A stretch of DNA of 64,000 nt, taken from Alphaproteobacteria bacterium. GTDB taxonomy: Bacteria; Pseudomonadota; Alphaproteobacteria; UBA828. Location of the stretch: positions 32,001 to 96,000 of the forward strand of contig CAXXVO010000015.1 of NCBI GenBank assembly GCA_963422645.2. The letters run 5' to 3'. This document shows positions 9,032 through 11,539 of the stretch, one piece after another (position 1 is the first letter of the stretch; the number at the start of each line of letters is the position of its first letter). The notes below the pieces were generated by a model, which ran no database searches, was not told the DNA's origin, and saw nothing but the letters and a program-made list of their open reading frames with translations. The translations under genes and the position numbers were made by a program.

Positions 9032-9173
9032 GTAACTACCCAGGTACCCCAATCCTGAGTTGAGGACGGTGATTATGGCGGCGGCCGCGGTCTGGTTCTG
9101 CCACCGCGATTGGTTCTTGACCTCATAGAGTTGCGGGACTATGGACTGCTCTCTCGCGTGACGGGAGCGGTCC

Positions 9174-9839
9174 ATGGGGTATTTCGGCTCGAAGGCGACA
9201 GCAGGTCTGTGCCAAGCGCTGATTGCGCTGATGCCGCCGCACTCCGTCTACATCGAGAGCCACCTTGGGGGCGGGGCGCTGACGAAGCGCAAGCCGCCGG
9301 CCGTGCGTTCGATCGGCATCGACCGCGATGCGCAGGCGCTCGAGGCCTTCGTCTGCGACTACCCGGTCGATCTGGTTCACGGCTGTGCCCATGACTTCCT
9401 GGCCTCGTTCCCGTTCCTGGGCCCGGAGCTGGTTTACAGCGATCCGCCCTATCTGCACGCGACCCGCCGCTCGGCGCAGCGCTACCGCTTCGAGTACGAG
9501 GAGGCCGGCCACGTCGCGCTTCTCGCGCTGCTCAAGGCTCTGCCCTGCCAGGTCATGATCTCGGGCCATCCGTCGGCGCTCTATGACGAGGTGCTGGCGG
9601 GATGGCGCCGGCTGGCGCTGCAGGTCACGACCCAGGGTCTGGTGCGAACCGAGGTCGTCTGGTTCAACTACGCCCCCGACCGGATGCATTGGGCCAGCCA
9701 CGCAGGCCGGAACTTCACCGACCGCCAGCGCATCAAGCGCAAGGCAGCCAACTGGGGCCGGCGCTACCAGGCCTTGCCGCCGGGCGAACGCCTCGCCGTG
9801 CTCGCCGCCATGATGGCCGTCGAGGCCGAAGACACGTGA
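9174..9839 (+). CDS. DNA adenine methyltransferase (M37T variant)
   Basis: YFGSK, ESHLGGGA, DPPY. Confidence 0.85.
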   Translation: MGYFGSKATAGLCQALIALMPPHSVYIESHLGGGALTKRKPPAVRSIGIDRDAQALEAFVCDYPVDLVHGCAHDFLASFPFLGPELVYSDPPYLHATRRSAQRYRFEYEEAGHVALLALLKALPCQVMISGHPSALYDEVLAGWRRLALQVTTQGLVRTEVVWFNYAPDRMHWASHAGRNFTDRQRIKRKAANWGRRYQALPPGERLAVLAAMMAVEAEDT

Positions 9840-11374
9840 CGGTGTCGCACTGGCACGAAGACCTCGCCGCCCGTAACGAGGCCTTCTGCTGCCTGAAGGA
9901 GCTTCTCGAGCCATCATCCCTCGCAACCACTGTCGTCGTTGCCGTCCGGGAATGGGGGCAGGGGCTGCTGCGATCAGCCACCGCGCTCGCCCGGGAAAAT
10001 GCCGCACTCGAGCAGGAGAACGCGGCCCTGCGCGAGCGCATCGCCGAACTCGAGCGCAGCGCGGCCCTCAACAGCACCACAAGCAGCAAGCCCCCCGCCA
10101 GCGACGGGCTCAAGAAGAAAAGCGGAGCCCAGAGGCGCACCCAAAGCCAGCGCGGAAAGTCCGGCGGGCCCAGTGGCGGCCAGCCCGGCCACAAGGGAAC
10201 CACCCTCGCGCGGAGCGACAGCCCGGACCGTGTCGTCGATCACCACCCCTCCACCTGTTCCGGCTGTGGCGTCGAGCTCTCGGACGCCGACCGGCAAGGC
10301 GCGCCCGCCTGTCGGCAGGTCTTCGACGTACCCGAGCCGCAGCCTCTCGAGGTCACCGAACACCGCGCCCATCGCTGCCTCTGCGGCGCATGCGGCACGC
10401 TGACACGAGCCGCCTTCCCGCCGGGCGTCACCGCCCCGGTCCAGTACGGCCCTCGCATCACCGCTTGGGTGAGTTACCTGCTGTACGCCCAGTTCGTGCC
10501 CGAGAAGCGTCTGGCCGAACTCATGAGCGACATCTTCGCGGTGTCCATCTCCACTGCCACGATCGCCGCCATGGGCCGGCGCACAGCGCAGCGCTTCGAG
10601 GGCTTCCTCGACCATGTCGCCGATCTGATCCGCACGCAGGCGCCGGTCAAGCACCTCGACGAGACCGGCCTGCGTATCGCCGCCCGTACCCGCTGGCTCC
10701 ATGTGCTGTGCACCCCGTTGCTCACCGTCCTGCGCATCGGCGAGGGACGCGGCGATGTCGAAAAGAACCTGAAAGGCATCCTCGTCCACGACGACTTCGC
10801 CCCCTACTTCACCATCAAGGGCGTCCGCCACGGCGCCTGCAACGCACATCACCTGCGCGAACTCCAGGCCCTGATCGACATCGAGAAGGAGGAATGGGCG
10901 GCGAGCATGCACCGCCTGCTTCAGCGCGCGCGCAGGGCCGCCCGCTTCGCCCGTGAGAAAGACCGTCAAGTCCCCGCCTCCCTGGTGGCCCGCATCTCAA
11001 GGGCATGGGACCGTATCCTCGAAGAAGCCATCGCCTTCCATGAGGCCCAACCGCCGCTCCAGATCGCAAAGCGAGGGCGAAAGAAACGCCGCATCGGCCA
11101 CAACCTCGCGCGCCGCCTTCAAAAGCATAAGGAGGGCTGCCTGCGCTTCCTCACCGACCTGCGCACGCCGTTCACGAATAACGAGGCGGAGCGTGACATC
11201 CGTATGAACAAAGTGCATGAGAAGATCTCAGGCGGCTTCCGCTCCCTGCAAGGCGCCTGCAACTTCGCCGGAATGCGCAGCGTCATCGTCACCGCTCGAA
11301 AGCAAGGCTGGAACATCCTGCAAATCCTGGCGCACCCGGAACCGATGCAGCTGATCCCTATACTGCGCTCCTGA
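9836..11374 (+). CDS. tnpC: IS66 transposase, intact
   Basis: Zinc finger CSGCG...CLCGAC retained; DDE motifs present. Confidence 0.92.
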   Translation: MTVSHWHEDLAARNEAFCCLKELLEPSSLATTVVVAVREWGQGLLRSATALARENAALEQENAALRERIAELERSAALNSTTSSKPPASDGLKKKSGAQRRTQSQRGKSGGPSGGQPGHKGTTLARSDSPDRVVDHHPSTCSGCGVELSDADRQGAPACRQVFDVPEPQPLEVTEHRAHRCLCGACGTLTRAAFPPGVTAPVQYGPRITAWVSYLLYAQFVPEKRLAELMSDIFAVSISTATIAAMGRRTAQRFEGFLDHVADLIRTQAPVKHLDETGLRIAARTRWLHVLCTPLLTVLRIGEGRGDVEKNLKGILVHDDFAPYFTIKGVRHGACNAHHLRELQALIDIEKEEWAASMHRLLQRARRAARFAREKDRQVPASLVARISRAWDRILEEAIAFHEAQPPLQIAKRGRKKRRIGHNLARRLQKHKEGCLRFLTDLRTPFTNNEAERDIRMNKVHEKISGGFRSLQGACNFAGMRSVIVTARKQGWNILQILAHPEPMQLIPILRS

Positions 11375-11539
11375 ACTTCTCCGGCTCATCCTGAGTATCG
11401 CTGTCCTCTCATCTTGTTCGCGACGCGGCGTTCATCATCCTCTCGCGCTCAAGAGAGTAGGCACCCCCGCGGCGTGGGGGCGTTGACGCAAAAGGAACTG
11501 GCTTGTTCCATAAGAGAGAGGGGGTACCTGGGCAGTTAC

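Follow-up and report, generated by a model that had tools for sequence, protein, structure and literature searches.

The window analysed here is a 64,000-nucleotide (nt) stretch of an alphaproteobacterial genome (contig CAXXVO010000015.1, positions 32,001 to 96,000), and our subject is an insertion sequence (IS) of the IS66 family at window positions 9032 to 11539 that carries, ahead of its transposase, a small gene resembling those for DNA adenine methyltransferases (Dam). The element belongs to lineage A, one of two lineages (A and C) of such elements in the window, and comprises the following features.

9032..11539, plus strand: full-length lineage-A element (copy 3), 2,508 bp, made up of left inverted repeat, candidate promoter/operator, leader, Dam-like gene, transposase and right inverted repeat
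9032..9051, plus strand: left inverted repeat, GTAACTACCCAGGTACCCCA
9117..9146, plus strand: promoter-like site with an embedded palindrome; -35 hexamer TTGACC at 9117-9122, -10-like hexamer TATGGA at 9140-9145
9121-9128 and 9139-9146, plus strand: palindrome half-sites CCTCATAG and CTATGGAC, respectively
9148..9168, plus strand: leader inverted repeat GCTCTC...GGGAGC, whose 3' arm holds the Shine-Dalgarno sequence GGGAG (9163-9167)
9174..9839, plus strand: Dam-like, Upf31-like protein of 221 amino acids (aa) lacking a target-recognition domain, with motif I HLGGGA, a DPPY motif and a predicted basic two-helix C-terminal tail
9836..11374, plus strand: IS66-family DDE transposase, 512 aa, whose GTG start overlaps the upstream TGA
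11520..11539, plus strand: right inverted repeat, GGGGGTACCTGGGCAGTTAC

The inverted repeats are imperfect, with a left end of GTAACTACCCAGGTACCCC... and a right end of ...GGGGGTACCTGGGCAGTTAC, and enclose a 142-nt leader, the 221-aa gene, the transposase and a 165-nt tail. At 9836 the sequence GTGA joins the TGA stop codon of the small gene to the GTG start of the transposase, a start that is credible because relatives align from residue 1. The 512-aa transposase matches DDE_Tnp_IS66 (4.4e-41) and also DUF6444 in Pfam, with zf-IS66 below cut-off, and matches NCBIfam transpos_IS66 at 3.6e-86 (289.7 bits; cut-off 180). No tnpA or tnpB accessory gene occurs in 9032-11539, and the 221-aa protein matches no IS66 accessory family in Pfam. 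This copy has no target duplication and adjoins another IS66-type element at 11540.

Taken alone, the 221-aa protein finds no Pfam family at E ≤ 0.01, PF02086 included, and nothing at E ≤ 1 in a single-protein sequence search of solved structures; its match to TIGR00571 ('dam') is weak (2.1e-4, 21 bits against a cut-off of 115). Relatives are abundant, with 3,704 at E ≤ 0.001 among 4,951 candidates, the best 120 of which are 69-99% identical and of similar length; clustering at 50% identity gives 5,554 groups, of which 553 reach E ≤ 1e-30. We aligned 46 sequences (the two window proteins, three locus translations and 41 of 150 listed relatives, these last selected as near-full-length). Residues D90, P91, P92 and G32 are invariant in this alignment, Y93 is present in at least 90% of its members, and 41 of the 46 match PF02086, the D12 class, at E ≤ 0.01. 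Conservation extends to 71 of 71 IS-linked representatives for DPPY and motif I together, and to 227 of 235 wider relatives of at least 200 aa for DPPY.

The profile of the 46 sequences aligns with DpnM and E. coli Dam over two segments, in which residues 2-61 correspond to Dam 10-67 and residues 72-143 to Dam 162-239. The intervening Dam residues 68-161, a target-recognition domain of about 95 residues, have no counterpart in the profile alignment; the order of the motifs, DPPY among them, is the same in the 221-aa protein as in Dam and DpnM. An AlphaFold model (pLDDT 89, pTM 0.82) places two C-terminal helices (181-199 and 203-220) after a Rossmann-type core, and Foldseek ranks E. coli Dam (4rtj) and DpnM (2dpm) first (probability 1.00, TMq ~0.5), followed by assorted small methyltransferases. 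A homodimer prediction scored 0.24 against a mark of 0.42 and was counted neither for nor against dimerization. Profile and model together describe the small protein as a Dam-type catalytic core that lacks the target-recognition domain and ends in a basic two-helix tail.

The relative that has been studied is a plasmid protein. A translated search of 72,556 plasmid records (PLSDB) returned 196 matches, all below 60% identity and 134 of them on conjugative plasmids; one is annotated upf31.0 and another lies in the IncP-1beta plasmid pBP136. The window protein is 45% identical to pBP136 Upf31 over residues 1-218, that is, over its full length including the C-terminal tail (E 2e-67). The two proteins fall in the same size class (224 aa for Upf31 of pBP136 and R751, 221 aa here) and share HLGGG, DPPY and a basic C-terminal tail. 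They differ in setting: Upf31 is encoded by a solitary plasmid gene between trb and tra, and the closest plasmid relatives have no transposase adjoining, whereas the window protein heads a transposase operon inside inverted repeats. The IS-linked proteins also form a tight clade of their own, and no plasmid match, Upf31 included, reaches 60% identity.

In the work on Upf31, pBP136 carrying upf31 conferred no GATC methylation on a dam- strain, and a full-length Upf31 hybrid brought the activity of the upf31 promoter down from 4.76 to 0.09 XylE units (Elg et al., Mol Biol Evol 2025, PMC11997246; preprint 10.1101/2024.02.05.579024). The same work reports no kinetic signal from SMRT (single-molecule, real-time) sequencing of ER2796, an E. 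coli strain free of methylases, with Upf31, and a plasmid-instability phenotype that depends on the C-terminal domain (PMC11997246). Elg et al. propose there that an inverted CAGCATCG repeat is the likely Upf31 operator, predict the plasmid regulator KorB as the partner of the protein, and allow for methylation on another substrate (PMC11997246). The original prediction had called the window's element a self-methylating transposon. That claim is not supported as stated, given that the target-recognition domain is absent and that Upf31 represses its own promoter without detected methylation (PMC11997246).

To place the small gene among transposases, its relatives were collected from species-representative genomes in two locus scans (142 and 329 relatives, the best 80 of each kept), which gave 154 loci with a near-full small gene; these are not independent, many coming from few genomes. 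The downstream gene on the same strand is of IS66 type at 120 loci, of IS701 type at 13 and of another kind at nine, with no long open reading frame (ORF) at six and too little flank at six. The IS701 assignment rests on NCBIfam transpos_IS701_3 (~1e-92) together with Pfam DDE_5. Of these nine, L178 belongs by Pfam to a further IS66 type, and L118 is a truncated relative of it; L167 is followed, after 280 nt, by another DDE_Tnp_1 protein; L116 and L056 show decay or interruption by another element; L082 is an outgroup; and L126 and L165, whose downstream genes have no Pfam match, complete the set with L059. The original prediction had left open that the pairing might be confined to this genome; it is instead widespread, and the phyla include Pseudomonadota, Acidobacteriota, Planctomycetota, Chloroflexota, Bacillota and a lineage of the candidate phyla radiation.

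The small gene lies within the element ends in every type. IS66 clade a, which includes the window's elements, has ends GTAACTRCCCAGGT; clade d has ends GTAACTACTCACCC and transposases 26-31% identical to the window's. IS701-type units have ends CTCGACTTTGTAC, measure 2.5-2.8 kb and are at least 99% identical between copies within a genome. These units (examined at L060-L066 and L077) insert at CTNAG, with 5-bp CTNAG duplications in 7 of 7 whose ends were located; the ends of an eighth were not found. The ends of the three element types are unrelated, and no common motif that might be a methylation or binding target was seen in their terminal repeats. Small proteins 70-85% identical serve elements with unrelated ends and unrelated DDE transposases. 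In the IS701-type units, as at L060 (3475-3762, minus strand), L063 and L077, a third gene, about 95 aa long and in the opposite orientation, lies upstream of the cassette and has a weak match to DUF3024 (5.6e-4, below cut-off).

In a quick maximum-likelihood protein tree, read with SH-aLRT support only, all 71 IS-linked representatives cluster together (support 93), a long branch separating them from six outgroup rows, and the IS701 label changes at least three times on well-supported branches. The tree and the gene orders indicate that the same cassette precedes two divergent IS66 clades and the unrelated IS701 transposases, with at least three switches of partner. The spacing between the two genes varies with the partner, as follows.

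IS66 clade a: GTGA or ATGA overlap in 7 of 8 representatives, median gap -4 nt
IS66 clade d: overlap in 2 of 40 representatives, median gap +16.5 nt, 32 of 40 within 30 nt
IS701-type: overlap in 1 of 6 representatives, median gap about +80 nt

The GTGA overlap named in the original prediction is accordingly a trait of the window's own clade and not of the cassette in general. A programmed frameshift fusing the small protein to the transposase was considered and rejected; there is no conserved slippery window, because the distance over which the transposase frame stays open ahead of the stop ranges from 13 to 256 nt among lineages.

What precedes the small gene is conserved as well. When the 170 nt upstream were aligned across IS66-type and IS701-type loci, a common block emerged consisting of TTGAC, a palindrome, a -10-like hexamer and a short inverted repeat that ends in the ribosome-binding site. 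The palindrome has the operator-like consensus CAnCATAG-N10-CTATGnTG, with the half-site C-A-n-C-A-T-A-G. Clustering at 97% identity reduced the small proteins of the 154 loci and the two window lineages to 72 clusters, and the pattern was tested on the 63 representatives with at least 100 nt upstream, the two window lineages and one outgroup locus being left out. The strict pattern TTGAC-N3-5-RTAG-N8-12-CTAY occurs within 100 nt upstream in 51 of the 63, and a looser one in 58; shuffled upstream regions match the strict pattern in 2 of 12,600 cases. The 12 failures mostly differ by one base, and L153 is without any such site. The TAG-to-CTA spacing is 10 in all 58 sites, and in 42 of the 58 the two 8-nt half-sites agree at 6-8 positions.

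Of the 82 occurrences of the strict pattern in the host genome, 79 lie directly upstream of a small-gene start. In the window CATAG-N10-CTATG is found four times, where 0.02 would be expected, and all four mark the left end of a lineage-A element. The half-site CAnCATAG differs at one fixed position from the IncP-1beta CAGCATCG and sits at the same place, right after the TTGA of the -35; the upf31 promoter has TTGACA followed by a CAGCATCG-type repeat where the IS cassette has its CAnCATAG palindrome. A Xanthomonas plasmid homologue lying outside any IS (56% identity) has CAACATAG-N10-CTATGCTG upstream. In the leader hairpin, RNAalifold finds four consensus pairs, three of them with compensatory changes, in 43 of 58 leaders; these were chosen by eye for similar length, a choice that favours hairpin structure, and the support is modest. 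Across all contexts the only common protein is the small one, and the only common DNA is its promoter with the palindrome.

The host genome (5.9 Mb, 23 contigs, 67% G+C) permits a census of the unit. The original prediction had placed a DPPY protein inside the inverted repeats of four elements and one stub of the window, and all five places exist as described. Besides copy 3 they are:

572..2950, plus strand: lineage-A copy 1, 2,379 bp; small gene 714-1379; without target duplication
6470..8848, plus strand: lineage-A copy 2, 2,379 bp; small gene 6612-7277; target duplication AACTGCCC
42856..45316, minus strand: lineage-C element, 2,461 bp; 222-aa small gene 44496-45164; transposase 42958-44499; target duplication GTTAGGAG
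62845..63079, plus strand: stub that comprises the left end and the promoter/operator-like site and breaks off ~31 codons into the small gene

The pairing is kept in two diverged lineages, as predicted: between A and C the small proteins are 85.5% and the transposases 75.8% identical. The three lineage-A copies are 99-100% alike; in copies 1 and 2 the transposase has an in-frame 129-bp deletion that removes the Cys-rich zf-IS66 stretch. Genome-wide, end-to-end copies of lineage A number 36, all at 99.7% identity or more, and 22 are flanked by exact 8-bp target duplications; lineage C has 14, of which 11 carry 8-bp target duplications. The element is thus mobile as a whole unit, the small gene included, as had been concluded from the duplications at copy 2 and at the lineage-C element. 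A search for RNA sequencing runs that contain the element listed none.

The small gene is intact in every full copy (36 of 36 in lineage A, 14 of 14 in lineage C), and the transposase in 34 of 36 and 13 of 14, respectively. The ratio of nonsynonymous to synonymous substitution rates (dN/dS) between A and C is 0.24 for both genes alike. In comparisons with five other lineages the small gene has values of 0.13-0.22; the transposase, compared with the four of those five in which it is whole, has values of 0.24-0.34. Relaxed selection on the small gene, which the original prediction had raised against itself, is not seen, and the ratios of 0.13-0.24 indicate purifying selection. The synonymous divergence (dS) of the small gene between the two lineages (9174-9839 versus 44496-45164) is 0.30, half of the 0.62 of the transposase; the lower value could mean that the cassette has recombined between lineages or that its DNA is under additional constraint.

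Several other repeats surround these copies. Copies 1 and 2 lie 5,898 bp apart inside a larger duplicated block (window 572-8848), in which 3040-3339 is repeated at 5483-5782 and which holds long minus-strand ORFs (344/436 aa and 555 aa) of another mobile element. The IS66-type element that copy 3 abuts lies in window 11540-13300, encodes a 501-aa transposase (11635-13140) and lacks the cassette; it recurs near 16413 and 36789, and its end is the insertion site of other A and C copies. At least 77 near-identical copies of it are present in the genome.

We favour, at a probability of roughly 0.55, the reading that the small gene and its upstream region constitute a portable autoregulatory cassette that limits transposase expression in a single-transposase (ISBst12-type) IS66 element. 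The cassette would consist of the promoter-like site with its palindromic operator, the leader hairpin over the ribosome-binding site and the 221-aa Upf31-like gene. The protein would bind the palindrome overlapping its own promoter and shut that promoter off, and the transposase, joined to the small gene by the GTGA overlap in this clade, would be read from the same transcript. Transposase output would be capped because the transposase has no visible promoter of its own and shares the transcript of the repressor; the cap would tighten with rising copy number, because the repressor would act in trans. The anatomy, its conservation, the movement of the element as a unit, the swapping of the module among transposase families and the protein's homology to Upf31 are all observed, and we infer operator binding, repression and an effect on transposition. 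A promoter-repressor unit is the simplest account because the small protein and its palindrome promoter are the parts held in common and because Upf31 represses itself at a similar repeat. Methylation of the element's own operator by the conserved DPPY pocket is possible in addition, because DPPY is kept in all 71 IS-linked lineages.

Of the three functions offered in the original prediction, control of the element's own activity fits best, probably by way of operator binding, while shielding from restriction and rewriting of the host methylome find no support here. The cassette more likely throttles the jumping of its own element than rewrites the DNA marks of the host, because the only tested relative behaves as a self-repressing DNA-binding protein.

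Several points weigh against the autoregulatory reading. The cassette-less IS66-type element reaches at least 77 copies in the same genome, so the cassette is dispensable for success. A pure repressor would have no need of motif I, retained in all IS-linked representatives, or of DPPY, retained in these and in nearly all wider relatives. A sigma-70 scan calls no promoter in 9000-11600, because the -10-like hexamer of this clade is TATGGA. The left half-site begins within the end of the -35 and the right half-site contains the -10, so the conservation of the site may partly reflect the promoter and not an operator. The link to Upf31 is to one studied relative at 45% identity, from which binding and repression here would have to be extrapolated. 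Lastly, the strain used for SMRT sequencing of Upf31 lacked the plasmid's own repeats (PMC11997246), and the negative result on methylation is weaker than it sounds because those repeats were absent.

The last of these points bears on the main rival, in which the protein is an active N6-adenine methyltransferase that takes its specificity from its own palindrome, and the promoter fires when hemimethylated after replication. This would be a self-contained version of the Dam/IS10 switch. We regard it as a tentative alternative, unlikely but with real weight, and keep it as the main rival because the repressor reading leaves the retention of DPPY and motif I unexplained. It would account for the DPPY and S-adenosylmethionine-binding motifs kept in every IS-linked lineage, for the invariance of DPP and G32 in the 46-sequence alignment, and for E. 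coli Dam and DpnM as the best fold matches; both half-sites, moreover, contain invariant adenines. Site-limited activity of Upf31 could have escaped notice, since the E. coli chromosome would offer such a long site seldom or never and the plasmid was missing from the SMRT experiment. Host Dam controls IS10 and IS50, which offers a precedent in which the methylase is the host's, whereas the 221-aa gene is the element's own; the idea common to both is that transposase expression is linked to a DNA mark. The protein, however, has no target-recognition domain, and no methylation was detected for Upf31 (PMC11997246).

Spelled out, this rival would be an epigenetic transposon switch, a doubtful proposal in which a Dam-derived enzyme traded its target-recognition domain for a dimeric tail, came to recognise only the 26-bp palindrome of its own promoter and methylates the adenines within it. 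Transposase synthesis might then, on the same tentative footing, be gated to the hemimethylated window after replication. With operator and enzyme travelling together, any DDE transposase could gain such control, which would explain the moves between IS66 clades and IS701.

It is improbable that the protein is instead a genome-wide orphan methylase, one that methylates many sites in host or incoming DNA and thereby protects against restriction or changes the host methylome as copy number rises. The conserved catalytic motifs speak for it, as does the occurrence of relatives on conjugative plasmids (134 of the 196 PLSDB records), where orphan methylases with anti-restriction roles are common. 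The Dam target-recognition domain is nevertheless absent, a chromosomal insertion sequence would gain little from anti-restriction, and the genome already holds two ordinary D12-class genes elsewhere (C16:163107-163820 and C8:99660-100373; 283-aa frames). This role would also leave unexplained why the gene sits, tightly and with conserved spacing to neither side lost, where it does: behind a private promoter and ahead of the transposase in each of three kinds of element. Upf31 gave no SMRT signal across the E. coli genome (PMC11997246).

Less probable still is a cofactor for transposition, acting in end binding, target choice or assembly of the transpososome. In canonical IS66 elements the accessory genes tnpA and tnpB lie upstream of the transposase, and the small gene occupies that slot; the transposases of this clade also have an N-terminal stretch of about 50 aa that is absent from the cassette-less element at 11635-13140. 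Against this role, such similar small proteins serve unrelated ends (GTAACTRCCCAGGT, GTAACTACTCACCC and CTCGACTTTGTAC) and unrelated DDE transposases, and the nearest plasmid relatives have no neighbouring transposase. A plain passenger, carried by a 'transporter IS' and of no use to it, is very improbable: passenger-carrying IS are recognised in the IS66 family by the authors of ISfinder in the TnCentral preprint, but here the gene precedes the transposase in the same orientation, mostly overlapping it or no more than 30 nt away, has become paired with different transposases at least three times, and is intact in 50 of 50 full copies. The label of transporter IS describes a gene unrelated to transposition inside IS ends; the small gene lies inside the ends, yet its placement and the conserved operator-like site suggest a bearing on transposition.

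The usual description of an insertion sequence is a transposase with helpers particular to its family. IS66-family elements have terminal repeats starting GTAA and an 8-bp target duplication. With the ISBst12 group our element shares the DDE_Tnp_IS66 transposase, the GTAA ends, the 8-bp duplication and the absence of tnpA and tnpB; members of that group measure about 1.4-1.9 kb, whereas the element here measures 2.5 kb and has the extra 221-aa gene with its own promoter and candidate operator. The single-transposase group, with ISBst12 and ISDge4 as examples, is a grouping of ISfinder and is described in PMC12898284.

The proposed logic has parallels in two other families. In IS1 (InsA) and the IS3 family (OrfA), the product of the first gene represses the element's own promoter, and a small DNA-binding product of an upstream gene likewise limits transposase expression. 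InsA and OrfA are family-specific helix-turn-helix proteins that bind the terminal repeats, whereas the cassette protein has a predicted methyltransferase fold and a putative site outside the terminal repeat, and is common to unrelated families. We found no description in the literature of a methylase-like gene inside IS66 or IS701 elements, though an ISfinder or TnPedia entry with such a layout may exist. What is new here is the link to Upf31, which changes the functional reading, together with the half-site analysis and the census of the host genome.

One module of regulator plus candidate operator is common to unrelated transposase families across many phyla, and its copies in a genome can number in the dozens. 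Should the module act as a repressor, transposons would have in it a novel and, it seems, successful means of restraining themselves, and thousands of genes that now bear the label 'DNA adenine methylase' or 'hypothetical' would gain a function. Should it methylate its own operator as well, host-Dam control of IS10 and IS50 would have its first counterpart encoded by a transposon. Either outcome bears on the question posed by Upf31, namely the role of a universally conserved DPPY pocket in a protein with no methylation seen.

The cassette protein is rare at the scale of a phylum. In an even set of 401 genomes of the window's phylum, 16 match the profile at E ≤ 1e-10, and the match covers the whole protein only in three, the window's genome among them; the remainder have ordinary Dam-sized genes matched over the catalytic half only. 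The two other full-length matches are 42-45% identical, and each overlaps, through ATGA, a gene for an Ogg-type helix-hairpin-helix (HhH) DNA glycosylase and not a transposase. These gene pairs lie at 1426-2948 in L082 (genome G337) and 719-2295 in L083 (genome G127), with a Pfam Ogg-HhH match of 4.4e-13. L082 has a different palindrome upstream of the gene, CATCATCGTCA...TGACGATGATG, and L083 a RadC-like gene nearby; the pair is possibly a methylase-like/glycosylase module. Among the database proteins, P0126 is a fusion in which the first 160 residues of the small protein are followed by the C-terminal end of an IS66 transposase, and is probably an internal-deletion derivative of a cassette-bearing IS66 element.

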